From: a virus
Lineage: Duplodnaviria; Caudoviricetes
IMG/VR virus record: IMGVR_UViG_3300027491_000200
Location: 1 to 24,513 of that record
Reading direction: 5' to 3' (one strand)
DNA length: 24,513 nt
Below the pieces are notes generated by a model, which had not been told where the DNA came from, did no database searches, and saw only the letters and a list, made by a program, of their open reading frames with translations. Positions 930 to 22,585 of this stretch are shown here, in pieces (positions within the stretch are counted from its first letter, which is position 1; each line of letters begins with the position of its first letter). Position numbers and translations under genes: made by a program.

Positions 930-2120
930 TTAATCTTTCTTATCAAATACTCGCAATAGCACTACGTCCTCATTGATTCGTACCTTGGGTTTGCCTTCCT
1001 TAGTAGTCAGCTTATCCCAGGCCTTTTCAATCTGCTTAGCGGTATTATTCAGCACAACCTCCAGGAATTCGTTGGGTTTGCGCAGACGAGTACAACGACT
1101 ATTGGTTTCATCGACGTTCTTAAGAGAGGTACCCTTGATCGAGAAACCTTCTGCCGACTGAGCAACATAGTCAAGCAGCATACGCTTCTTGGTATTGAAT
1201 GCTAGCAAACGATATGCACCAACAACTCGTGTCGGATTAATCGATGCAATCTTATACTCGGTATCTTCCTTACGATACTTGAGCTTAGTAATCTGCTTGT
1301 CTGCTGACTTGGTGCGCTTCTTGCGAGGTGCACGAGTCGCTTTTGCAGCATGGCAGTAACGGTTCAAATCAGCGAGCATCTGCTCTGTTGCATCGATTCG
1401 ATCACGCAGCTCAGGACCTGTCAGATAGCGATAGCCTTCAACCAGATCAGGATCGGTCTTGTCACGCGCAGCAACCATTTCATCGCGCTGACGAGTCAGC
1501 CAGCGTTCAACCAGCGGGCAAGCTAGGGAGGATAGATCGTGTCCGTTCATCGTCTCATATAGATCAATGCGTCGCACCTTCTGACCCTTGGTTCGTATCC
1601 AGTCATCAAGCAAAACATCAAGATCCATGATGACTGTGCGCTTGGCTTTAGCCTGTAGCAAAACCATCGGCGAAACAGCTGGCGCAGTGTCTATTGCCAC
1701 AGTATCTGGCTGCTTTGCACGCTTACCTTCTGCAATGGCCTTGACCAGTGCATCAGAGACAAACGCTGCATCAGAAGGCTGATCCTTTTCAAGTTCAGGA
1801 TGCAGCTGCGGCATACCTCGGTTCATGCAGATGCACAGCGTGCCGGCAGTAATACCCGGTAGATAGTCGGGCGCAGCTTTTACTGCAGCAATGTCATCCT
1901 TCGGGTAGCCATTGCGCTCCATCCACTCAAAGACAGCACCTTTCGTCTGCACTGCATCGAGATAGTAGTTGTAGAAATTGAATGCACGAGAACGTTCTTT
2001 CTTGAACTTCTCCAGATCCCAACGCTCCCAACCATCCCAGACAGGCTCATCGCCCGTATACCGAGTATCGATAGCGCGGATCTTGTAGCTTGTGTTCGGA
2101 ACTTTTGCTTTGCGCGCCAT
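930..2120 (-). CDS. conserved hypothetical protein of T4-like myoviruses (396 aa)
   Basis: Long ORF with the pattern GDEP.W...FN(F/W)YNY ...EGY... SINP..(I/V)VGA..L..FNTK.R.L ...KGT(S/T)L ... LRKP ... RINE..(I/V)LLRV that I recall from aquatic T4-like phages; function unknown. Confidence 0.75.
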   Translation of the reverse strand: MARKAKVPNTSYKIRAIDTRYTGDEPVWDGWERWDLEKFKKERSRAFNFYNYYLDAVQTKGAVFEWMERNGYPKDDIAAVKAAPDYLPGITAGTLCICMNRGMPQLHPELEKDQPSDAAFVSDALVKAIAEGKRAKQPDTVAIDTAPAVSPMVLLQAKAKRTVIMDLDVLLDDWIRTKGQKVRRIDLYETMNGHDLSSLACPLVERWLTRQRDEMVAARDKTDPDLVEGYRYLTGPELRDRIDATEQMLADLNRYCHAAKATRAPRKKRTKSADKQITKLKYRKEDTEYKIASINPTRVVGAYRLLAFNTKKRMLLDYVAQSAEGFSIKGTSLKNVDETNSRCTRLRKPNEFLEVVLNNTAKQIEKAWDKLTTKEGKPKVRINEDVVLLRVFDKKD

Positions 2121-2121
2121 A

Positions 2122-2412
2122 TTAGATCAGGTTCAGATTTACCTCAAGCGGCGCGGGTGTGTAACCTGTGACTGAATCGACGCGAAACGAGCGCCAGCCA
2201 TCTGAATCAAGATCGTAGACGCGAATGACATCCAGATTCTCCTTGAGTTGCTTTGTGCCCTTGGGATGCTTGTCCTCTGGTACGAGAATGTCGTTGAGCG
2301 TGCAGCGCATATCTCGCTTGGTTCCATCAACCTTAGTGAATGTCACAACAACCGGATCTCCGGCGCGAAGAACTTCGAGCAGCTGCTCGCGAGTGTATTT
2401 AGTCTTAGTCAT
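2122..2412 (-). CDS. SH3/WYL_2-like (DUF2693-like) small protein
   Basis: V.VTFTK.DGT.R.M.CTL ... VYDLD..GWRSFR.D motif typical of this T4-like phage family. Confidence 0.75.
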   Translation of the reverse strand: MTKTKYTREQLLEVLRAGDPVVVTFTKVDGTKRDMRCTLNDILVPEDKHPKGTKQLKENLDVIRVYDLDSDGWRSFRVDSVTGYTPAPLEVNLNLI

Positions 2413-2419
2413 AGTGTAG

Positions 2420-2448
2420 ATCCTGCCATAAACGGCACGGAATGTAAA
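2420..2448 (-). promoter_or_regulatory. sigma70-type promoter, leaderless
   Basis: TTTACA-17 nt-CAGGAT; predicted +1 near 2413, adjacent to the ATG at 2412. Confidence 0.55.
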
Positions 2449-2450
2449 TC

Positions 2451-2593
2451 AAAAAGTTCTGTCAAATGAGCCTACCTCAATCTGAGTTGAAGTATCTTTT
2501 TTATGTTAACTAGGCCAACAGTGTCATCTTGTGAACGAAGGCCGAAACGTATATCTTGATCTACTTACTAGAAGTAGGCTCATTTCACAGAAC
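2451..2593 (-). ncRNA. candidate late small RNA (~140 nt) with 20-bp closing stem
   Basis: Arms 2456-2475 and 2574-2593 are complementary (19/20) and followed by T5 on the minus strand. AATAAATA (2606-2599) lies 5 nt upstream. No convincing ORF. Confidence 0.5.
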
Positions 2594-2617
2594 AAAGGTA
2601 TTTATTCTAGCGAGTTT

Positions 2618-3046
2618 TTAGAGGGCTTTAGCGACCTTGTTCCAGTACGCCTCGAGGTTGCGCTGTTTCGCATCACCGAGAGGGGCGCTAGCTCGCTTCC
2701 ATGCGCCCGCTCCGCCGTTCCAGATGAACGCCAACTCCTTGTTGGTCGCATCACGGCCGGTCGTTTTGCTAATGTGTTTAGAGTAATGACTTAGCACAAT
2801 CTCAGCAACAGCGCGTGCCTTAGTAGGGTCGAACATCTCACGATGCGTAAAGTGCTTACCAGACAGGCGGTTAGCCTCGGCGACAGTAATCGCATGGATT
2901 TGCAGGATACCAAACGCCTTGCCAGAGTCGCCCACTGCATTCGCTTTGCCATTCGACTCGACGCGGATCAATGCATCAATCAGACGCGACTGGTCGGCAG
3001 CAGCCGCGGCGGACGTCAGAGCAAGAAGCGCAAGTATCATTTTCAT
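2618..3046 (-). CDS. secreted lysozyme-fold muramidase / lytic transglycosylase
   Basis: Signal peptide (MKMILALLALTSAAAAA), catalytic motif ALIRVESNG, G(I)LQI and WNGG motifs of the SLT/GH23/destabilase-like family. Confidence 0.8.
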   Translation of the reverse strand: MKMILALLALTSAAAAADQSRLIDALIRVESNGKANAVGDSGKAFGILQIHAITVAEANRLSGKHFTHREMFDPTKARAVAEIVLSHYSKHISKTTGRDATNKELAFIWNGGAGAWKRASAPLGDAKQRNLEAYWNKVAKAL

Positions 3047-3052
3047 AAGACT

Positions 3053-3120
3053 ATACTACACACCCTGAGCTAAAAGTAAAGCTATTTGAATTGCGTAACC
3101 CGTTGATAGCCAACGGGCAC
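3053..3120 (-). promoter_or_regulatory. leaderless promoter with upstream palindromic box
   Basis: CTTTAC (3081-3076)-17-TAGTAT (3058-3053) with TGTG extension; predicted +1 = A of ATG 3046. Box TAACCCGTTG-ATAGC-CAACGGGCAC at 3096-3120. Confidence 0.7.
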
Positions 3121-3150
3121 GCTAGATTGTTCTAACCCGTTGGTTAGCAA

Positions 3151-3441
3151 TTAGTTGCACCAGTAGGCCTCATCGCCCACCGAGCAGCCGTACGGAGTAG
3201 CAACGTCTTCCTTGACGAGAGCGCCGTTCATTGCGCTACGCACGTAGTGGTAATCACTTGCGTTCTTGCCAGCCTTGAGACGGTCACGAAGACGCTTGGA
3301 GAGGTCGGAAATCTTGACAGTGACCTTCTTGTCGTCATTCTTCGCACGACGCGGCACGAGTACAAGCTCCACGCCATTGTTTCGCGTGATCCGATAGCGG
3401 ACACCGTTGTACTTGACAGTCTTCAGTTCGTTTTTCATCAT
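3151..3441 (-). CDS. hypothetical early protein (96 aa)
   Basis: ORF with its own promoter; C-terminal TPYGCSVGDEAYWCN. Confidence 0.75.
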   Translation of the reverse strand: MMKNELKTVKYNGVRYRITRNNGVELVLVPRRAKNDDKKVTVKISDLSKRLRDRLKAGKNASDYHYVRSAMNGALVKEDVATPYGCSVGDEAYWCN

Positions 3442-3478
3442 GGCAATATCCTACACAAATGGCTCAAAAAGTACAGGA
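3434..3478. repeat. 45-bp exact direct repeat, copy 1 (start codon plus promoter)
   Basis: ttcatcatggcaatatcctacacaaatggctcaaaaagtacagga, identical to 3749-3793. On the minus strand it reads CTGTAC-17-TAGGAT-6 nt-ATG. Confidence 0.9.
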
Positions 3479-3504
3479 CAGAAAAGTTTGTAACCCGTTG
3501 ATGC

Positions 3505-3756
3505 TCAGTACGACATCTCCCAGCGGTTAAAACTGCCACAAGTAACACAAGATTCATAGAGTTCCGACCATGTTTTCTCAGTGGTCGGCAGAATCGTAGA
3601 AGCAATGGTGTGACCAATGCGGTTTTGAGTCGTGGCAATCACTTGCCGTTCGCGCGGCAAAAACCTGAGCGCAGTACGCTCATCACCAGCCCATGACTTA
3701 GAAACGAACATAGTGACGACATTGGTACGAGCGGCGAGTTGCTTAGCATTCATCAT
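3505..3756 (-). CDS. hypothetical early protein (83 aa)
   Basis: ORF between two promoter repeats; the stop codon lies inside the palindromic box. Confidence 0.7.
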   Translation of the reverse strand: MMNAKQLAARTNVVTMFVSKSWAGDERTALRFLPRERQVIATTQNRIGHTIASTILPTTEKTWSELYESCVTCGSFNRWEMSY

Positions 3757-3793
3757 GGCAATATCCTACACAAATGGCTCAAAAAGTACAGGA
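3749..3793. repeat. 45-bp exact direct repeat, copy 2 (start codon plus promoter)
   Basis: Identical to 3434-3478. Confidence 0.9.
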
Positions 3794-3819
3794 AAGAAAG
3801 TTACGTAAGTAACTGACTA

Positions 3820-4074
3820 TCAGTCATTCACTATAGTAATGCGAGTGCCATCGAAAAGATTGTCGGTATAGCACTTGAATTCGCCGTCCCACCCGTCTTC
3901 GTACCCAGGCGCGTTGGTATCGATCTCGTAGAAACGAGTTTGCCCAGTACGAATGGAAGTAATGGCAAACCGGCTGATGTTCTCATGGCGATTGCTGAGC
4001 AAATCGCTGATATCGGCGACGCCATGCGTGCCTTTCCAGGTGAATTGATCCGAGGTAAAGTAGTGCAGTTTCAT
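3820..4074 (-). CDS. hypothetical early protein (84 aa)
   Basis: ATG at 4074 is within 1 nt of the predicted +1 of the promoter CTGTAC (4110-4105)-17-TAGTGT (4087-4082); stop inside the box at 3820-3822. Confidence 0.7.
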   Translation of the reverse strand: MKLHYFTSDQFTWKGTHGVADISDLLSNRHENISRFAITSIRTGQTRFYEIDTNAPGYEDGWDGEFKCYTDNLFDGTRITIVND

Positions 4075-4137
4075 TATCACTACACTACATACCTTGAGCT
4101 AAAAGTACAGGACAGAAAGTTACGTAAGTCGTTGGTA

Positions 4138-6180
4138 TTACTTAGATGTCGCTCTATAGACGCCATCCCACTGTTCGCCTGGGTCATTGTCGCGCAGATA
4201 CTCGATTCGCTCGGTCATCATCTCGTAGTATCCAGCTATGAAATTCATGTTAGATGCGAGCATCTTGGCCTGCGCGGTGGCTTTCTTCCACTCGCGTGCT
4301 CGGTAAAGTGATAGAAAAAGCTCGTGCTCGGCAAGCATAAGATTAGTACCCTTGTCAAAGACTGTGTAGATCTTCACACCTTCTTTCTTGCCTTTGACCG
4401 CAATGCAATCAAGCTCGAGTGTAGGAAAGACATCTTTCACACGCTCGCGCGTGAGAGGTCCTAGCACGATTTTGACACCGTACGGTTTTGACTGACCCTC
4501 GAGGCGTGATGCAAGATTGACATGGTCGCCCAGACAGGTGTAGTCGAACCGCTGCTCAGATCCCATATTGCCCACGACTACAGTACCGGTATTGATACCT
4601 AATCCCATGCCGAAAGCAGGGACACCTTCCTTCGCAATTTCCTCATTGAATGCCTTTAGACTACCCATCATCTCAAGTCCTGTCTCGACAGCATGGATGG
4701 CATGAGAACTGTCATCGAGCGGAGCATTCCAGAATGCCATCTGAGCATCTCCAATGTACTTGTCAAGCGTGCCTTTCTTTTCGATAATCGAGCGCGTCAT
4801 TGCAGTCATGTAGCGATTCATAATCTGCGTCAGACCCTGCACGTTCTTTCCGTAATGCTCAGAGATCGCTGTGAATCCGCGAACGTCAGTAAACATAATC
4901 GATAACTCGCGTTCCTCACCACCCAGCTTAAGTGCATCGGGATTCTTTTGTAGCTGTGCGACTTGATCGGGTGAAAGGTATGTCTCGAACTGCTTTTTGA
5001 TCTGCTGTTTTAACTTGAATTCCATCACGAAGCGCATGAATAGCGCAGATCCCCAGCTTGCGATCAGCGCGCCCACCGCCCAGGTATAGTCAGCGAGCAT
5101 GCCCAGATGAAATAGATAGAATCCTGTACCGATTGGTAGCGCAGCAAGCACGACAAAAATCAGACCTGCGATACCATATCCCAGGTAACAGATCGTCACC
5201 ACTGCAATTGCTGCAACCAGCAGACCAGCGCCCAGCTCATACAGATCAAATTCCGCAGGACGCTCGAGACGTGCTTCATCGATCAGCATTTGCAACGCCT
5301 GCAGATTAACTTCATATCCATAACTTGTTCCAAGAGGAGTAGCAACAGTATTAGCTAACCCTTCTGCTGTCGGCGCGATAACGACAATCTTTCCTTTTAT
5401 CGCTGACCAATCTTTTGCAGTGTATGCTACTGATGGAAAGGTATACTTGAAATTGAGCCAGACTCGTGCATTCGCATCGGTTTTGATTGGCGGAATACCA
5501 GCAACTCGAATTGCTGAAATACCAGCCTCAGATACTTTAGCTTGATTACTTGCCTCACCGCCAAAGACACGCAAAACCTCAAGTGGTAGAGTAGGATATT
5601 TCTCACCTTTGACCTGAATGATCAGCGGCAAGCGACGTACTACACCATCAAGCTCAGGTGCTGTTAGCAGCATGCCCACACCTGCAGCTGATTTACCAAT
5701 GTCACTGACTGGTCCTATTGCCGCTGGATAATCGAACAGCCAATCTTCAGCACCACCACCGATTGTTGCAAGGCCGCGGGGCACTGGCTCACCTTTGCCT
5801 TTTTGTGCTGCAGATTGTGCGATGATGACTGGTGCCTTGCCGAGTTGTTCAACAAATGCAGCATCTCCGCCCAGACGATCTGGCTCTGCAAAAATGATTG
5901 GCAGCACAACAGCTGACGCGCCTTCGTCAAATGCACGCTGCATACCTGCGGCAAGAACATCGCGCTTCCAGGGCCATTGACCATTTGTTTCTAGCGCGTC
6001 TTCGTCGATCTCAATAACTGCGATGTTTTCTGCCGTGCGTTTTTCCTGTACTCGCTGGTAGTAATCTAAACCTTTTAAGCGTAATACCTCGATAGGATAT
6101 GGGTCCCAGATACGCAGCACAATTGCTGCAACGAGCACACTAAAGCCAACTACAAGTGTTTTGAGAGTATGTTTCTTCAT
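4138..6180 (-). CDS. CHASE2-domain class III adenylate cyclase (membrane-bound)
   Basis: N-terminal TM; CHASE2 motifs (IDE..L...GQWPW.R, DGVVRR.PL); three TMs; intact cyclase motifs FTDVRGFT, DKYIGDA, GINTG.VVVGNMGS..RFDYT.LGD.VNLASRLE. The K/T pair indicates ATP specificity. Confidence 0.95.
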   Translation of the reverse strand: MKKHTLKTLVVGFSVLVAAIVLRIWDPYPIEVLRLKGLDYYQRVQEKRTAENIAVIEIDEDALETNGQWPWKRDVLAAGMQRAFDEGASAVVLPIIFAEPDRLGGDAAFVEQLGKAPVIIAQSAAQKGKGEPVPRGLATIGGGAEDWLFDYPAAIGPVSDIGKSAAGVGMLLTAPELDGVVRRLPLIIQVKGEKYPTLPLEVLRVFGGEASNQAKVSEAGISAIRVAGIPPIKTDANARVWLNFKYTFPSVAYTAKDWSAIKGKIVVIAPTAEGLANTVATPLGTSYGYEVNLQALQMLIDEARLERPAEFDLYELGAGLLVAAIAVVTICYLGYGIAGLIFVVLAALPIGTGFYLFHLGMLADYTWAVGALIASWGSALFMRFVMEFKLKQQIKKQFETYLSPDQVAQLQKNPDALKLGGEERELSIMFTDVRGFTAISEHYGKNVQGLTQIMNRYMTAMTRSIIEKKGTLDKYIGDAQMAFWNAPLDDSSHAIHAVETGLEMMGSLKAFNEEIAKEGVPAFGMGLGINTGTVVVGNMGSEQRFDYTCLGDHVNLASRLEGQSKPYGVKIVLGPLTRERVKDVFPTLELDCIAVKGKKEGVKIYTVFDKGTNLMLAEHELFLSLYRAREWKKATAQAKMLASNMNFIAGYYEMMTERIEYLRDNDPGEQWDGVYRATSK

Positions 6181-7331
6181 TTCTTTTGTATTACCTTCAC
6201 AGATGATTTATCACCAAAGTTTAGCGGGTATGTCTTTGTACCTGCTGCTGTCGTGACCTCAACAGTCAAACTAGCATTTGCTTTCGTGGTGTAGTACAGG
6301 ATCTGCCCACTATTATCAAGTGACAGCACTGCATTCACTCCGTCGGTGGACCATCCAGGATTTGTGGTCATACTTACTAGAACAGGAACAACCGGCGGCG
6401 CGGGTGTAGCTGGCGCCACAACCTTTTCGATTGCCTGCGCAGCTGCTTGTAGCACCGCTGGTTGTATAGCAGCTAGGTCTAGCTTAACCTCAACAGGAGG
6501 TGTTTCTTCTGTCTTAGCCACTGTTTCAGCAGCTGGTGGCGTATCGACCTGAGAAACCGCAGTCTTATTACTTTCAGACTTTGTATTTGTGCCTTTTTTT
6601 GGCTTGTTGTCTTCTTCATTGCTCGATTGAGTTTGCTTTTCTTTCTTTTGCTCTTTAACGGCCTGCGTCACCTGACGCGGCGTCTCGACGATGAGCATAT
6701 TATTGATTTTAGATTCGTCCTGAAAGTCTAATACTACTGGTGTAGTAGGTGCTATGCTAGAGGATGCCACGAACGTTGCTTGGTATGCCTGATTTAGTAA
6801 TACCGTGCCTGATAAATTTGACACAGATATCTCTCCTACTATAGGAGGCAATCCCGACTTGAGCGGTACTGACGGTAACAGCACAATCAAGCTTTTTCCG
6901 TCCTCTGATACTGTCATTGAAAAGTCGGTACCACGCACTGATACCTTTGCAGTGGGTGTCTGCACCTTGACATTCTCGCGGCTATTCTTTGCAATAGCTC
7001 CGGATGCATATCTGACAGTGCCAAATGCTGCCTTGACCGACAGAGATCCCTTTCCGCTCTTTGGATCGTAGACGAACTCATCGATCTTGAGCTTTGAGAA
7101 TTCTGTCACCTGCATCTTGGTATTATCCTCAAAGGTAATCGACACTCTGGCCTTGAGTGTTTCCACGGAGTCATTCATCTCGACTCCAACCTGCGCCTTG
7201 CCCTCGATCTTTTCTTTACCCCGAACAATCTGCGTGGGTCCAGTTACTTCCATCATCTTGCCCACGAAAGCATTCGCAGACGAAACAGCCGCTAAAGCCA
7301 GAGCGATAGCGGCTGTCCGTGCGAACTCCAT
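6177..7331 (-). CDS. secreted FecR-domain protein with Pro/Ala/Lys-rich linker and C-terminal beta domain
   Basis: Signal peptide; FecR motifs D.VET......I.F.D.T, G.VRYASG.IAK, V.TPTA.V.VRGTDF. Confidence 0.9.
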   Translation of the reverse strand: MEFARTAAIALALAAVSSANAFVGKMMEVTGPTQIVRGKEKIEGKAQVGVEMNDSVETLKARVSITFEDNTKMQVTEFSKLKIDEFVYDPKSGKGSLSVKAAFGTVRYASGAIAKNSRENVKVQTPTAKVSVRGTDFSMTVSEDGKSLIVLLPSVPLKSGLPPIVGEISVSNLSGTVLLNQAYQATFVASSSIAPTTPVVLDFQDESKINNMLIVETPRQVTQAVKEQKKEKQTQSSNEEDNKPKKGTNTKSESNKTAVSQVDTPPAAETVAKTEETPPVEVKLDLAAIQPAVLQAAAQAIEKVVAPATPAPPVVPVLVSMTTNPGWSTDGVNAVLSLDNSGQILYYTTKANASLTVEVTTAAGTKTYPLNFGDKSSVKVIQKK

Positions 7332-7347
7332 GATGTATTAGACTAAC

Positions 7348-8157
7348 TCAATTTCCTGGCGGAGTAATCGAATTTGTCGTCTGCGATGGTCCGGTAGGAC
7401 CGTTCGTTCCAGTCGTTGTCATCACTGGAGCATAACCAGCAGTTGTCTGCACGATCTGAACGTTATTTGTAGAACCTGTCAGAGTATAGTTCAATGTCTG
7501 CTTTTCAAGTCCTGCTTGGTAGATCGTCAGGTTATTTGAAGATCCGGTAAGCACAACGGTTTGTTCGTGACCAGTTTTTGCAGCAGCGCCACCTGGGTTT
7601 CCGATTTGAGTGGACTTGATATTATTGGAGTCACCAGTGATCGAGTAGTCCAAGTAGTTGTATTTACCTGAACTAATTCCAAAGCGAAGGTCGTTGGAAT
7701 TACCTTGAACGTTGAAGATAAGGTCCGAATTGGTGAAGGTAGCCTTAGTGGTATCACTATTCGATGTGTGATCCACCGAGGTATCTCCATTGAGTAAGAA
7801 CTTGTTTGAGTTTCCATTCAGCAGTATGTTTGCGTTATTGCTGGCGCCGCTGAAGTAATACTGTTGAGTATTGCTGTTGCCAGTAGCAACTGTCAGTAAT
7901 TTCAGATTATTGGCGCTAGCAATGGAGAACTTCGTGTCGTTGCTATTGCCGATCTGGCGCATCTCGAACACGATGTTATCTCCTGTGATGTCACTTTGGG
8001 CCGCAGCCGAAGTGCCGATTTTGTTCAGGCTTCCGACCTGAACGAGAGTGGTGTTGCCACCCGTGGTTATCTGATTTATGTATATCTGATTCTGAGCCAG
8101 CGCAGTTGTCGCAGCTGAAAGCAGAAGCAGTGTGAGTGCTACGACTGAGGTCTTCAT
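7348..8157 (-). CDS. curlin-like secreted repeat protein (CsgA/CsgB-like)
   Basis: Signal peptide; ~22-24-aa repeats with Q/T-x-G-x-x-N (QVGSLN, QIGNSN, TGNSN, NGNSN, QGNSN, TGDSN, TGSSN, TGSTN); N/T/G/S-rich; directly downstream of csgG. Confidence 0.7.
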   Translation of the reverse strand: MKTSVVALTLLLLSAATTALAQNQIYINQITTGGNTTLVQVGSLNKIGTSAAAQSDITGDNIVFEMRQIGNSNDTKFSIASANNLKLLTVATGNSNTQQYYFSGASNNANILLNGNSNKFLLNGDTSVDHTSNSDTTKATFTNSDLIFNVQGNSNDLRFGISSGKYNYLDYSITGDSNNIKSTQIGNPGGAAAKTGHEQTVVLTGSSNNLTIYQAGLEKQTLNYTLTGSTNNVQIVQTTAGYAPVMTTTGTNGPTGPSQTTNSITPPGN

Positions 8158-8969
8158 TTTTCTGTTGTGGGTTGGTTGTTAGCTGTGACGAATTTCCATA
8201 ATCCAGTTTTAGCTCCCTGATGTATGATTTCAATCACAGCCTGGTCGATAGCGCTTCGAACCGCAATTGTGTTGGGTTCGTTCGCCGTCAGGCCAATTTC
8301 CGATTCTGCGGGAGTTACTCCATGCTCATAAAACTTAAAAAGGTTTCCGGAGGTCGCTACACTCGTGATTGTCTTTGTGACAGCCACAGATAGCAGAACC
8401 TCACCTGTCTGAACTGAAATGAATCTAAGAGAAACAGTGACAACATCCTTGCGGTATTGGGTGCTACCCGAGATTCCTAGAAGGCTAGCACCCGCGCCGC
8501 CAGTCAGAACGTTAGTGTCGTATCCGATGATACCGCCTTCTGCAATGATTCCAGCAAATAGAAGCGGTGATAGTTTTTCGGCCTCTTTGCCGAAGAAAGA
8601 TTCACGAGTCTGTGCGATCAGCTGGCGTTCCTTGATGAGGTTATCAAGCGATGCGCGCTCAAGCACCTGAAACCATTTACCCTGTCCAGAAATGCGCAGC
8701 GCGTCGATCAGCCAGGATTCTGCACCTTGCGTCACAGCTGATGAAAAAGACGCATACTGATCCACTGTCTTCCTTTGGCCTGTCTTATCGGCAAATGAAT
8801 ATACCGCAATAGTTATTCGACCACCATCGATAATTGGCAAAGCCAATAACTGTTTTTGCAACGGTGATTCTTGCTGCAGAGGAGCTTCAATAATCCGCGG
8901 TGACTTTGGCAGCGAGCCACAGCCAACTAAAGACAGCCCCAGCGCAATTGCTATCAGTACTCGCATCAT
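8154..8969 (-). CDS. csgG: curli secretion channel lipoprotein CsgG
   Basis: Lipobox LVGC; IAVYSF.DKTGQRK, FSSAVTQG, WF.VLER..L.NL.KERQ.I, EGGIIGYD.N, G.STQYR.D.VTV.LR..SV.TGEVL.SV motifs. Confidence 0.95.
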   Translation of the reverse strand: MMRVLIAIALGLSLVGCGSLPKSPRIIEAPLQQESPLQKQLLALPIIDGGRITIAVYSFADKTGQRKTVDQYASFSSAVTQGAESWLIDALRISGQGKWFQVLERASLDNLIKERQLIAQTRESFFGKEAEKLSPLLFAGIIAEGGIIGYDTNVLTGGAGASLLGISGSTQYRKDVVTVSLRFISVQTGEVLLSVAVTKTITSVATSGNLFKFYEHGVTPAESEIGLTANEPNTIAVRSAIDQAVIEIIHQGAKTGLWKFVTANNQPTTEK

Positions 8970-9466
8970 CCGTTTGGAGGAGTGCCCAGCGATCCTACTG
9001 GCACCTGAATCGAAGTCGTGTTTCCTGTGGAAGGATCGACGATATACAGAGTTACAAAATCGCCTGCTCTATTCCATGTTACTGTTGCTCCACCTTGCAA
9101 ATTGATAACGCCAAAGGTAGCACCAGATGCATTAAAAATTTCGTCAGTAACCTGAGATGCAAGCTGCGAGTAAATGCGAGCCTGCAGATTTACGATGAAG
9201 TTATTCAGTGGAGTATTCTGTCCTGCAAGTTTGAGATTTTCTGCCTCCGCCTTTGCAACATCCTTGATGGTTTGCTTGCGAGTACGTGCCAGATTCTCCT
9301 GAGTAAAAACGTGAGAAGAATATCCGATACCGTTGAATGCTGGAGACTTAAACGAATGCACCATGTCCGATCCGCGGACACAAGATGGCATTATGCTAAG
9401 AAATAGGATTATTGCTAGAGTTAGAAGCATCCACGTGTCTGATGACTGGTTGCGGTTTTGTTTCAT
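8966..9466 (-). CDS. csgF: curli assembly component CsgF-like
   Basis: Signal peptide then MVHSFKSPAFNG, F..NLQARIYSQLASQ, and C-terminal G.TT.I.VP; directly upstream of csgG. Alternative start at ATG 9430. Confidence 0.85.
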   Translation of the reverse strand: MKQNRNQSSDTWMLLTLAIILFLSIMPSCVRGSDMVHSFKSPAFNGIGYSSHVFTQENLARTRKQTIKDVAKAEAENLKLAGQNTPLNNFIVNLQARIYSQLASQVTDEIFNASGATFGVINLQGGATVTWNRAGDFVTLYIVDPSTGNTTSIQVPVGSLGTPPNG

Positions 9467-19017: not shown

Positions 19018-19692
19018 TTAGAATCTGATTGTTGTACCTGCACGCCAGCCAGCCGTCCACTCCTTTTGAATACCATCACGGAGAACATAAATTCCCGCAG
19101 TGGCAATCTTCCAAGTAACGTCAAACGAGCCGCCGTAGTAGGCATTAGTGTACTTAATTTCCTTTAGTGTGCGAGGAAGTGCATCATTGACATCGGTGTA
19201 ACCTGCCGATAGCGCGGTTGTGCTCTTGATTCCCAAGAAGAGAGGTAGAGTCTTTGAGACCTTGCCCTCGATGTTTGTGGTTTGGGCCTCAAGATCTGCG
19301 GTTGCAGTGACAGCCATCCATGAGTTGCCGACGGCAATAAAAGGACGCCAGTGATTCATTCGATCCTTAGGATCGGCTTCGAACTTCGTGACGTACTTCG
19401 TGCCAAGCTCGATGTTTGCAAATGTAGAGAAGAACGAATATCCGCCCACTAGATCGGCCTGATAAAGGCCAGAATCCTTGAGCGAAACATTGTTCTGCAT
19501 TACTGCGGCGGCGCGGAAGCTCTGCCAAGTAAATTCTGCATTTGCCACATATGCACCCTGACGACTTGAAACGCGACCAAAGGTGATATCCTTCTCGCGG
19601 TAACCGACGGTCAGCGTACCGTAATTAGCAGGTGCCAAAGCCGCCTGAGAAATGGCGGCAGTGGCGAGGAATAGCGCGATGAGCTTATTCAT
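19018..19692 (-). CDS. putative outer-membrane beta-barrel protein
   Basis: Signal peptide, amphipathic beta strands, C-terminal aromatic beta-signal (AGWRAGTTIRF). Confidence 0.7.
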   Translation of the reverse strand: MNKLIALFLATAAISQAALAPANYGTLTVGYREKDITFGRVSSRQGAYVANAEFTWQSFRAAAVMQNNVSLKDSGLYQADLVGGYSFFSTFANIELGTKYVTKFEADPKDRMNHWRPFIAVGNSWMAVTATADLEAQTTNIEGKVSKTLPLFLGIKSTTALSAGYTDVNDALPRTLKEIKYTNAYYGGSFDVTWKIATAGIYVLRDGIQKEWTAGWRAGTTIRF

Positions 19693-21203
19693 TATTGAGC
19701 TGGATTAGTGACCGTGCCAGTCGTGGTAACAACTGGAGCAACACTGTTCAGGTTAGTAACGAGACTGAGTTTGCTCAGATCAACGGCACCAGAACCAGCA
19801 TTGATTGTCAGGCCGTTGGCGATATTGCCACCCAGGAAGGTGACAGCGCCAAGGGAATCAAGTGACAGCTTTGTGGCAGTCAAAGCAAACGTGTTAGGAG
19901 TCTGGAAGAAACCTTCCTTCGTCTTGAGGACGAGTTCCTTGACGTTTACACCATTGAGGTTGATGGTGGCATTCTCATAAACGGTTGCATTGCCAGTGGC
20001 TGAAACCGACAGAGGGCCAAAACTATGGTTAGCCTTGGTGATTGCAACATCGCCAGCGGTGGCGGTGAATGCCGCGCGGTCATATACGAACACGCCATCA
20101 ACTGAGTCAACCACACGAGATCCGGTGAAGGATGCGCTGCCGCCTAGACTGACCTTACCCAGAGTCAGAGTTTGAGCAGCAGTGAACGAGTTATTCGCAG
20201 CGTTACCACGAACATTGTCCAGAGTGAGGAATCCAGGAGCAGTCACTGTCATACCGTCGATAGCAGATCCTGAGAAGTTAGCGGTGACAGGACCAGAGTC
20301 AAATGCCACGCTGACATTCTTTCCATTAGCAGTAACAGTTGGGATAGCAACTGCACCTACACTGATGTTACCGCTGACGGTATCGAGATTCAGCGTCTTG
20401 CCGAGAACTCGTGAGCCTGCTGCATTACCGATGTTACCAGAGGTAGACGCAACCGAGATATTTCCGTTGGTTCCAACGATACCAACCGGCACACCTAGAT
20501 TGGTGTTACCTGTAGGATTGGTGATGGAAAGGTTACCAGAAATCCAGGTTGTGAAGGCAGGAGCACCGATGTCTACAGCGCCGTCGGCCTTGAGCGTCAT
20601 ATCTCCACCAGTAAGAACTCCACCGATAGTGATATCCTTGGCGAGGATTGTGATGTTAGATGTTGCGATGATTGCACCATTTTGAGCAACGACATTGCCA
20701 GAAGCAGTGCGCTGGCCGCCTACTTCTGAAGGAATGACGCCATCAGCTGCGTACTTGAACTGTGCGGCGAATGGATTGTCCACTGCGCTGGCCACAAATG
20801 CATTTGTGTCGATGCGAGCTGTGCCGCCGATCACAATGCCATTTGGATTCAGTACGTAAACCTTGCCGTTGGATTCAAGTGTACCATTGATCGTGGTCTG
20901 GTTGAGTCCGCTGACGATATTCAGCACAGAGGCCGAAGATCCTGGCAGGTTGTACTTGATGGTGTCAGCAACTGCGATCTGGTCAGTGCCAGATCCGAAG
21001 TTGTTCCAGTTCAGAATTGCGCGGTCTGGCGCATTGAACGTCAACGTCGATCCCAATTGGTCGAACGTCACTCCAGTGCTTGTCTGGAGGTTAGTAGCAC
21101 CAGTGCTTGGAAGCGCTGCTGCTGAAGCTGCAAAAAAGAAGAAAAGAATGCTGATAAGCAATCCGTTCTTCAGGTTGTTTTGGTTATGTGTGTTATTACG
21201 CAT
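19692..21203 (-). CDS. filamentous haemagglutinin N-terminal (TPS) domain beta-helix protein
   Basis: Signal peptide ending AAA-LP; AILNWNNF, VLNIVSG...T.INGTLESNGKVYVLNPNGIVIG (NPNG motif); Gly/Thr/Asn beta-helix repeats; ATG 21203. Confidence 0.9.
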   Translation of the reverse strand: MRNNTHNQNNLKNGLLISILFFFFAASAAALPSTGATNLQTSTGVTFDQLGSTLTFNAPDRAILNWNNFGSGTDQIAVADTIKYNLPGSSASVLNIVSGLNQTTINGTLESNGKVYVLNPNGIVIGGTARIDTNAFVASAVDNPFAAQFKYAADGVIPSEVGGQRTASGNVVAQNGAIIATSNITILAKDITIGGVLTGGDMTLKADGAVDIGAPAFTTWISGNLSITNPTGNTNLGVPVGIVGTNGNISVASTSGNIGNAAGSRVLGKTLNLDTVSGNISVGAVAIPTVTANGKNVSVAFDSGPVTANFSGSAIDGMTVTAPGFLTLDNVRGNAANNSFTAAQTLTLGKVSLGGSASFTGSRVVDSVDGVFVYDRAAFTATAGDVAITKANHSFGPLSVSATGNATVYENATINLNGVNVKELVLKTKEGFFQTPNTFALTATKLSLDSLGAVTFLGGNIANGLTINAGSGAVDLSKLSLVTNLNSVAPVVTTTGTVTNPAQ

Positions 21204-21211
21204 AGGGAAAC

Positions 21212-21219
21212 TATTTATT
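21212..21219 (-). promoter_or_regulatory. late promoter variant AATAAATA
   Basis: One mismatch from TATAAATA, 8 nt before ATG 21203. Confidence 0.55.
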
Positions 21220-21231
21220 GTCGTAAAGTAA

Positions 21232-21364
21232 GGTCTTTGTGAACTTTCATAGCCTCGTATATCTAGCAACCGCGGTTGCTTGCACCGCCAGCAGGTTTGC
21301 GACTGGCGCGAGGTTCAGACCATCAGAAAGCTTCCCATAGTTAACTATAGGCGCAGTATCTGCT
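21232..21364 (-). ncRNA. candidate structured RNA D (pseudoknotted)
   Basis: Pairings 21242-21248/21326-21332, 21253-21257/21309-21313 and crossing 21232-21236/21317-21321; hairpins at 21265-21280 and 21286-21308. Strand inferred from the flanking tRNAs. Confidence 0.5.
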
Positions 21365-21366
21365 AC

Positions 21367-21594
21367 TTTTCTTAGACCACTGCTCATCGATGTTGTCCTG
21401 GGCTCTGCTAGGCATTACTGCCACCGGATGAGACCATTCTAGATAACAGCGGGTCTTAACATCCGGGCTTCGACATACCATCCGTCGCAATTAGCCACTC
21501 GGTGTCATAGCTGTCCTGCTATTCTGACATTGCTGGCTTCGATGAATACGACCACTAACGGCGCGTTCGCCGATTGGATTGTGGTCTAAGAAAA
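21367..21594 (-). ncRNA. candidate structured RNA C (~228 nt)
   Basis: Perfect 14-bp terminal inverted repeat ttttcttagaccac/gtggtctaagaaaa; nested stems catcga/tcgatg, ccggatg/catccgg, agacc/ggtct, agcca/tggct, tgtca/tgaca, atagc/gctat. Confidence 0.65.
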
Positions 21595-21595
21595 T

Positions 21596-21670
21596 TGGGT
21601 GCAGAGAAGGGAATCGAACCCCTGACCTCTTGGTTATGAGCCAAGCGAGCTGCCACTGCTCCACACTGCA
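21596..21670 (-). tRNA. tRNA-Met(CAT), initiator-like
   Basis: TGCAGTGTGGAGCAGTGGCAGCTCGCTTGGCTCATAACCAAGAGGTCAGGGGTTCGATTCCCTTCTCTGCACCCA; fMet-like D arm; encoded CCA. Confidence 0.9.
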
Positions 21671-21692
21671 ATAAATTGAAAAGAACAAAAAA

Positions 21693-22074
21693 GAGGCGCC
21701 ACGCTGGCGGATATCTTTAACCGCAACGAGATTTATTTATCTATCAGCAAGATATGTGCTGAAAGATCTTTGTCCTCGTGTTTATTCACACAGCGCGTTT
21801 GCTTTAATCCGGGATCCGGCGGAACTGTGGCGTGGCAAGTCGCAGATGCACTTTGCGCTACGCACTGATGCATCTGCCGCACTAGGCCTATACTTCTGTT
21901 TAGACTCGCCTAGTCGAGTATGATGAAAGAGTACCCTCTCGCAGTAGCGTTGTCGTGTAGTGCCAGCCGATGTCTATTTCATCATTACCAGCATTTATTC
22001 CCTACCGAACATCCGTGCAGACAATAGATTAGTGAATGCTGCTAAGGGAGAGGGTTTCAAGGAGATCAAGCCTC
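21693..22074 (-). ncRNA. candidate large structured RNA B (~380 nt, pseudoknotted)
   Basis: Closing gaggc/gcctc followed by a T-tract; stems 21698-704/21830-836, 21842-850/21869-877, 21881-887/21908-914, 21920-928/21977-985, 21989-995/22035-041; 8-bp crossing pair 21933-940/22048-055. Confidence 0.7.
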
Positions 22075-22086
22075 GAAAGTAAAAAT

Positions 22087-22332
22087 TGGGAGGACTAATG
22101 ATTACCTCCATCCGGGGAACTTGCCTTCAGTTATTCAGTCAGATGGTGCCGTCGCACCGTAACGAGTCGCCATATCATTATGGTTCATGCTTACAACCCG
22201 TACCTCTGGTAGCTTCGGTTGGCCAACCTAGGCCTCAGCGTAGTACCTTACTTACTTACAAGTCCCGGAACTAACTGCAGTTCTTCACTGCGGTTATACG
22301 TTAACCCTAAGGAAAAGGTTTATTCCGTCACA
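22087..22332 (-). ncRNA. candidate structured RNA A ending in CCA
   Basis: Long-range stem tccggg..acttg (22111-22123) with caagt-cccgga (22259-22269); several hairpins; 3' hairpin GGAGG..CCTCC then CA; immediately downstream of the promoter at 22363-22391. Confidence 0.55.
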
Positions 22333-22362
22333 AAAGTGTAAAATGTCAATCGAACAGCATAG

Positions 22363-22391
22363 ATCATACATTGATTCTTGCGTCTGTAAAC
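22363..22391 (-). promoter_or_regulatory. T4 early-type promoter driving the ncRNA/tRNA-Met block
   Basis: GTTTAC (22391-22386)-17-TATGAT (22368-22363) with TG extension and a T-rich upstream element. Confidence 0.8.
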
Positions 22392-22424
22392 AAAAAAATG
22401 GAATTTTTTGGATAAATAGCTCAA

Positions 22425-22583
22425 ATGCTATTCAGCGGCTACATCATCCGACTTGCGAGCGATGGCTCAATCTTCTTCGACGACGAAATTAGCCCAGAGT
22501 TGTTGCGCGTTGAAAACGGCGACAAGTTTGAAGTAATTCTTGTTGAAGGAGTGGTTTGCCTTCACAAGCTACCAAAACAATAA
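22425..22583 (+). CDS. AbrB/MazE-like small protein (52 aa, not in ORF track)
   Basis: MLFSGYIIRLASDGSIFFDDEISPELLRVENGDKFEVILVEGVVCLHKLPKQ; swapped-hairpin pattern (DG.I......L.V.NGD.F.V....G.V.L.K); GATAAATA (22411-22418) 6 nt upstream. Confidence 0.65.
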   Translation: MLFSGYIIRLASDGSIFFDDEISPELLRVENGDKFEVILVEGVVCLHKLPKQ

Positions 22584-22585
22584 AG

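Follow-up and report, generated by a model that had tools for sequence, protein, structure and literature searches.

A promoter-led array of structured RNA modules in the tRNA cluster of a T4-like phage, with a pistol ribozyme fixed to a predicted dimer-forming RNA

Introduction

What is made from 1.1 kb of phage DNA that lies beside tRNA genes, holds no credible open reading frame, and is densely folded: one large RNA, or several small ones with separate fates? The question is raised by IMG/VR record IMGVR_UViG_3300027491_000200, a 24.5-kb fragment (24,513 nucleotides) that is an entire assembly in itself and is called the window here. Its genes for a late-transcription coactivator, a DNA ligase, a Hoc-like protein, csgF/csgG, and a CHASE2 cyclase mark it as a T4-like phage. 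An earlier note on this DNA had proposed either a single multi-domain RNA with an embedded tRNA or a polycistron of RNAs released by tRNA processing.

Results and Discussion

Layout of the RNA operon

Five tRNAs and a tmRNA form a minus-strand cluster, and the array lies at its 3' end. It is a promoter-led operon of six modules (A, B1, pistol, B3, C, and D) plus tRNA-Met, in the order A-B1-pistol-B3-tRNA-C-D:

22363..22391, minus strand: promoter-like GTTTAC-17-TATGAT (pattern scan)
22086..22333, minus strand: module A, a manA-like RNA of ~250 nt (sub-threshold Rfam match and alignment)
21933..22077, minus strand: module B1, in no Rfam family (alignment)
21837..21919, minus strand: pistol ribozyme (Rfam, above threshold; model match at 21919-21860)
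21698..21836, minus strand: module B3, a multibranch RNA fused to the pistol, in no Rfam family (alignment)
21680..21686, minus strand: boxA-like GTTCTTT in the U-rich linker ahead of tRNA-Met (motif count)
21596..21670, minus strand: tRNA-Met (CAT) (tRNA call)
21368..21593, minus strand: module C, a multibranch RNA, in no Rfam family (fold and alignment)
21232..21364, minus strand: module D, in no Rfam family (fold and alignment)

As the earlier note had claimed, this ~1.1 kb is free of substantial reading frames (the longest ATG-to-stop run in six frames is 58 codons) in an otherwise gene-dense genome, the largest gap among 41 picked open reading frames outside the array being 205 nt. The tRNA-Met is called at 21670-21596, between domains B and C of that note. 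Of its four densely paired domains, the dense pairing stands, with folding z-scores of -2.15 for A, -3.59 for B, -3.97 for C, and -1.42 for D (the last not significant by itself) under a fold model that omits pseudoknots; B is not a single domain and resolves into B1, the pistol, and B3. The crossing helices reported for B and D hold in relatives, and A and C each have one too.

Two observations concern the surroundings. The tRNA-Met has an initiator-like D arm, yet it carries a U1-A72 pair and a pyrimidine discriminator, as it does in relatives. The stretch between the tmRNA and the promoter (22400-22585), which carries a 52-codon plus-strand ORF, is kept in relative L002 (E 5e-17). Elsewhere, a cassette at window positions 4138-9466 combines csgF and csgG with FecR, a CHASE2 adenylate/guanylate cyclase, and, judged by eye, a curlin-like repeat protein.

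The earlier note could place the array in no known family. Comparison with Rfam changes that for the pistol, the only strong family match, and in part for the manA-like module A, which comes near; for B1, B3, C, and D the statement holds. Between 21100 and 22600, there was no match at E<=10 to GOLLD, ROOL, RNase P, or group I/II introns, and families other than pistol and manA gave nothing of note at that cutoff. Among the Rfam models run, those of HDV-like families had no match either. Reading B as a permuted group I intron, or D as a TPP- or RNase P-like fold, started from a resemblance in motifs, had no Rfam support, and was rejected.

Compensatory changes in related phages

Relatives were found via two neighbouring proteins and motif scans, and many of the loci come from the same contigs; a metagenome scan took in 121 of ~240 stretches. 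All modules show compensatory base changes in these related uncultured phages. Two-sided changes, counted without tree correction on related sequences after removal of near-duplicate loci by hand, affect 19/37 pairs in A (26 sequences), 28/42 in B1 (7 sequences), 10/25 in pistol-B3 (16 sequences), 16/45 in C (8 sequences), and 6/16 in D (11 sequences), above slid controls in every case. Since the structures were drawn from the same alignments, the counts lean towards them, and the alignments of B1, C, and D have 7-11 sequences.

B1 folds into a 5' hairpin and a two-arm junction with a 6-bp loop-loop helix (22028-22023 / 21978-21973), which is 100% paired and covaries at 3/6 pairs; its first loop bears an invariant GAUC, uninformative on self-pairing either way. 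Module C has a probable 5-bp pseudoknot (21552-21548 / 21488-21484), and D combines a pseudoknotted core (21332-21232) with variable 5' hairpins; in each pseudoknot, one pair shows a two-sided change.

A B1 covariance model found 9 matches in 53 sources, all within this clade, and a scan with module C found 29, of which the full module appeared only in five phage contigs already in the locus set. When the whole region was compared by blastn with 50,697 phage records, the best 40 of 174 matches were to tRNAs only; A+B, C+D, and a distant class of A (described below) had no match in those records, so that the non-tRNA parts of the array are without a counterpart in any cultured phage record compared. 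A genome scan for module A yielded one short MAG contig, which is itself phage-like and therefore gives no host call.

A pistol ribozyme fixed to module B3

The window pistol scores 38.0 bits against RF02679 (threshold, 34.5). Its counterparts in relatives score 54.5, 52.1, 48.1, 43.8, 36.9, and 35.0 bits, with one more under the threshold at 33.6. P1, P2, P3, and the 6-bp pseudoknot are all present in the window copy, in which the equivalents of G40-C41-G42 lie at 21880-21878; P2 has only 3 bp but covaries, switching among AAG/CUU, GAU/AUC, GAG/CUC, and GGU/ACC. The pseudoknot, purine-32/G33, and GCG are kept in 16/16 aligned pistol-B3 units, P1 and the pseudoknot having been fixed by the search pattern for many rows, and 15/16 have a clean 2-nt P3-P2 junction with a fully paired 3-bp P2 (the parse of L235 is ambiguous). 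A32, G40, and G42 are needed in pistol ribozymes (PMC6154101). The predicted cut falls between 21841 and 21840.

These pistols differ from most stand-alone ones in junction and linker. B3-type copies have an R-A junction, mostly G-A or A-A, in 15/20 cases and a 6-nt linker in 15/20, whereas stand-alone pistols have a G-U junction in 49/82 and a 5-nt linker in 65/82, according to an automatic parse that left 9/111 copies unparsed and misread a few rows. By these sequence traits, the B3-type pistols form a subtype. They are also bound to their partner: a B3-anchored scan gave 14 matches, and all 4 true ones have a pistol directly upstream; among the loci compared, B3 was never seen without one, and pistol-B3 is the only pair of modules never separated. 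In loci of the L016 type, no module stands between the promoter and the pistol, so separating upstream RNAs is not what the pistol does there.

Is the ribozyme active? The window junction is G-A, not G-U, and for this reason an inactive or slow pistol that serves as the 5' structural domain of a ~220-nt pistol+B3 RNA, still dimerising, stays a rival. The R-A junction, 6-nt linker, and 3-bp P2, unlike those of most stand-alone pistols, would suit such a domain, as would a P2 that abuts the B3 closing helix and a partnership that evolution has left unbroken among the loci compared. However, the catalytic positions and the junction length are kept, L036 has the canonical G-U, and P3 varies freely in length, as with active pistols. 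Moreover, junction bases are only modestly conserved among pistols, while junction length is strict, and cleavage leaves a 5'-OH (PMC4604425). We therefore regard the purely structural pistol as unlikely, if the most serious competitor, and self-cleavage, predicted from the conserved core, as reasonably probable.

Pistols also occur upstream of tRNAs in L152, L160, and L186 (from ~1500), where non-B3 sequence follows; palindrome-like loops can be seen by eye in some of the three.

Module A and its likeness to manA

Module A scores 28.6 bits (E 4.4e-5) against the manA model (RF01745), and its counterparts score 32.5-34.8 bits in three relatives, all below the threshold of 55.2. A comparison by eye with the manA RNA of cyanophage S-CREM1 (PMC9964418) nevertheless finds the manA traits in A: a closing P1, a GAAUAA internal loop, and a terminal hairpin with an 11-nt loop. 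The terminal loop of A forms a pseudoknot with an upstream loop (93.5% paired; 2/5 pairs covary); in S-CREM1 manA, the corresponding pair was seen only by eye. Two guessed helices fared poorly, at 67% and 52% paired. A four-base self-complementary loop at 22224-22221 switches much as the B3 loop described below does, with an inner pair that is GC in 17, UA in 5, AU in 1, and other in 3 sequences (n=26). Because A is larger (~250 nt versus 192 model positions) and below threshold, we treat it as working like manA and do not file it as a member. Since manA RNAs assemble into 8-, 10-, and 60-mers by kissing loops (bioRxiv 10.64898/2026.07.01.735769), A could by analogy self-assemble in the same fashion, for which we see an even chance.

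A distant, longer class of A (280-297 nt) occurs in other tRNA-rich phages (L035, L040, L041, L046, and L052, at ~1760-2280, or 800-1095 in L041), with a group I intron nearby in three.

The manA family was originally put forward as a cis-regulatory or riboswitch candidate (PMC2864571), and D or the whole array might likewise be a riboswitch-like leader of the adhesin-like gene that starts at 21203. In the window, ~30 nt separate the end of D from that gene, and D directly precedes a homologue of it in L002, L011, L012, L023, L139, and L161. However, D lies away from such a gene in L003, L015, L126, and L156, and in L148 the gene follows B3 with no D. Furthermore, the bona fide manA of S-CREM1 (L262 716-930) stands directly between tRNA-Leu and tRNA-Asn and not in a 5' UTR. 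A leader function is thus improbable. In this clade, the RNA array is followed by the TPS-domain adhesin-like gene and a 224-aa protein (window 19018-21203); a homologue search with the latter returned unnamed homologues only.

One RNA or several?

The closest relatives share the order A-(B1)-pistol-B3-(tRNA)-C-D, and tRNAs can occur inside GOLLD (PMC12990946), as would suit a giant multi-domain RNA with an embedded tRNA. Other relatives, however, drop A, B1, tRNA-Met, or C/D, or reorder what they keep. L002 has no A, L023 neither B1 nor tRNA, and L156 no tRNA; in L003 and L015, B1 stands ahead of A, and the pistol, B3, and C are missing; L016 has pistol-B3-tRNA alone. A stands alone in many loci, and D, which follows C wherever the contig is long enough, is also found alone. 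Each module has its own closing helix, flanked by U-rich linkers. Over ten module pairs, inter-module helices of at least 5 bp included two with two-sided change, not above label-shuffled controls. Independent loss and reordering, together with the lack of an inter-module covarying helix above control, indicate separate RNAs, and thus favour the polycistron over the single RNA of the earlier note; a giant GOLLD-like RNA, given also that neither GOLLD nor ROOL is matched, has very little left to commend it.

Further folded-looking modules occupy the same slots in some relatives, namely, L002 (8320-8505) and L005 (7060-7365 and 7878-8020), which have one of them in common, L139 and L161 (between A and the pistol), and L240 (after B3).

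A palindromic loop in B3

One loop of B3 carries a hexamer (21817-21812) that is a perfect palindrome in 14/16 aligned units while taking six different sequences: GUGCAC in 6, CUGCAG in 3, GAGCUC in 2, and GGAUCC, UGAUCA, and UGGCCA in 1 each. The loops of L126 and L158 are not palindromic. Palindromes were counted at fixed alignment columns, an automatic pick having taken stem palindromes in three rows, and the P5 and P7 helices of B3 were counted by script. All three self-pairs of the hexamer covary (the innermost is GC in 12, AU in 3, and other in 1), and for the inner two, pairing inside a single strand is impossible. Shuffled controls averaged 3.2/16 palindromes, with a maximum of 9 in 5000, and two other B3 hairpins are palindromic in 0/16 and 1/16. 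The palindrome lies off-centre in its loop in 9/14 units; in the 5/14 where it is centred on the hairpin, the outer pair could be ordinary stem.

Palindrome switching of this kind supported the intermolecular bridges seen by cryo-EM in OLE and GOLLD (Kretsch 2025, PMC12286853), and the same logic leads us to a kissing-loop reading here: B3 is predicted to form homodimers through its palindromic loop, which we consider likely. That the palindromes instead act in DNA, as protein or restriction sites, or merely stabilise hairpins of a monomeric B3 is suggested by their resemblance to restriction sites and by the five centred cases, and is highly improbable, as six alternative sequences at a single position are not what a DNA-binding site would show, most copies are off-centre, and the other B3 hairpins have no such feature.

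Promoter, linkers, and RNA libraries

The GTTTAC-17-TATGAT pattern, which we take to be of T4 early-promoter type, is present at 22391-22363 on the minus strand, as the earlier note had it. By itself it does not exceed chance: a generic scan found 3 promoter-type sites where 5.7 were expected. The pattern stands upstream of the first module, with a varying spacer, in 8/12 loci checked (window included), three near-identical loci being among the 8. GTTCTTT occurs 18 times in sense and 3 times in antisense in five related clusters, compared with 7 and 4 outside them, and copies in the clusters mostly sit just before an RNA; the motif may be a boxA, in which case it would point to Nus-type antitermination.

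The stretch is present in 24 runs, all river metatranscriptomes and possibly from one campaign, and contigs identical to the window cover parts of the region in the 8 runs examined. These data are contigs without strand, ends, level, or DNA control, from runs picked for containing the stretch. In four runs mapped on 21150-22500 in 30 bins, 21840-21885 alone is uncovered in all four. Contigs on the B3 side stop at 21820 or 21829 in four of eight runs, three of which show adapter tails, and no contig piece among those listed bridges the predicted pistol cut. The gap is compatible with cleavage and was not counted as evidence for it, because these are contigs with no DNA control and a reverse transcription stop at the strong P3 hairpin looks alike. 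Contig depth is ~1300-4100 on C/D (four runs), versus 4-39 on coding-gene contigs where listed, and ~300 on a contig spanning C into the adhesin-like gene (two runs); we rejected these depths as an expression ranking, also given how the runs were chosen. Runs X2 and X8 hold a divergent copy of module C (window 21382-21557) with an overhang matching the L139 type, which indicates a second phage of the clade in those libraries.

A model for the operon

Release of tRNAs by RNase P and trimming of linkers are general features of tRNA operons. Here, one precursor RNA would span the array, and host nucleases would cut it at the U-rich linkers and at tRNA-Met (RNase P), trimming the products to their closing helices; release of the modules from a single precursor in this way is very probable. 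The pistol would cut at 21841/21840 and so make the 5' end of B3, B3 would dimerise via its palindromic kissing loop, and A may well self-assemble. A 5'-OH shields RNA from 5'-end-dependent RNase E attack. Because the pistol cut would leave such an end on B3 (pistol chemistry, PMC4604425), the product would be shielded in this way. We hold the model as a whole, an operon of separate RNAs in which the pistol releases a B3 homodimer, to be somewhat better than an even proposition.

Its purpose can be put forward only tentatively. Made alongside the phage tRNAs and tmRNA, the RNAs might serve as a scaffold or decoy, abundant and stable, that protects phage translation, for instance by sequestering RNA-binding proteins or the RNA-cutting defences of the host. 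A broader and similarly speculative proposal is that self-assembling RNAs make up a mix-and-match kit in this clade, in which the pistol subtype matures the B3 dimer, A is an enlarged manA-type cage former, the B1 loop-loop helix is intermolecular and builds rings, and the protein-free assemblies store or shield phage tRNAs and tmRNA.

In the literature searched, no paper links a pistol with a specific RNA product from a phage tRNA cluster, and none describes this RNA cassette; PMC10690425 may list the modules among its automatic candidates. What appears new is a known ribozyme in a new predicted role among phage tRNA-cluster RNAs, together with four unassigned folds (B1, B3, C, and D). Pistols are chemically well studied, and a fixed B3 partner with an exact predicted cut makes a product testable; if the pistol frees B3, this ribozyme class gains a concrete job. 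Palindrome switching in B3 predicts a dimer and also which natural variants should not mix. Now that short natural RNAs are known to form cages, the manA variant and the four uncatalogued folds of this locus offer new candidates for RNA-only assemblies.

Comparison with known systems

Among RNAs of T4-type phages, species 1 and 2 (rnaC and rnaD) are likewise stable small RNAs co-transcribed with tRNAs; neither the module profiles nor the B1 covariance model showed any similarity to them. Theta ribozymes (PMC10879173) are also small self-cleaving ribozymes tied to phage tRNA genes, but they have an HDV-like fold and lie at the tRNA 3' end, whereas the pistol here sits upstream of a non-tRNA RNA and would generate its 5' end. 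The RNA-only multimers GOLLD, ROOL, OLE, and ARRPOF have kissing loops, as predicted for this array, and like it have been assigned no function (PMC12286853; PMC12990946); GOLLD and ROOL also lie near phage tRNA islands, and OLE and GOLLD show palindrome switching, as B3 does. Unlike GOLLD and ROOL, the array is not one conserved unit of several hundred nucleotides but a set of independently shuffled modules of 100-250 nt, and a ribozyme is predicted to release one of them. Module A matches manA (RF01745) in its closing P1, its GAAUAA internal loop with hairpin, its 11-nt terminal loop, and its position among tRNAs of T4-like phages; it differs in that it lacks a conserved 5' hairpin and has both a self-complementary GNNC hairpin and a second GAAUAA element in reverse orientation. 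Finally, the ribozyme agrees with pistol RF02679 in P1, the 6-bp pseudoknot, P2, P3, purine-32/G33, G40-C41-G42, the 2-nt junction, a score above gathering, and a phage context, whereas most copies here have an R-A junction, a 6-nt linker, and a 3-bp P2, and the ribozyme is set within a tRNA cluster in a fixed fusion to a downstream structured RNA.
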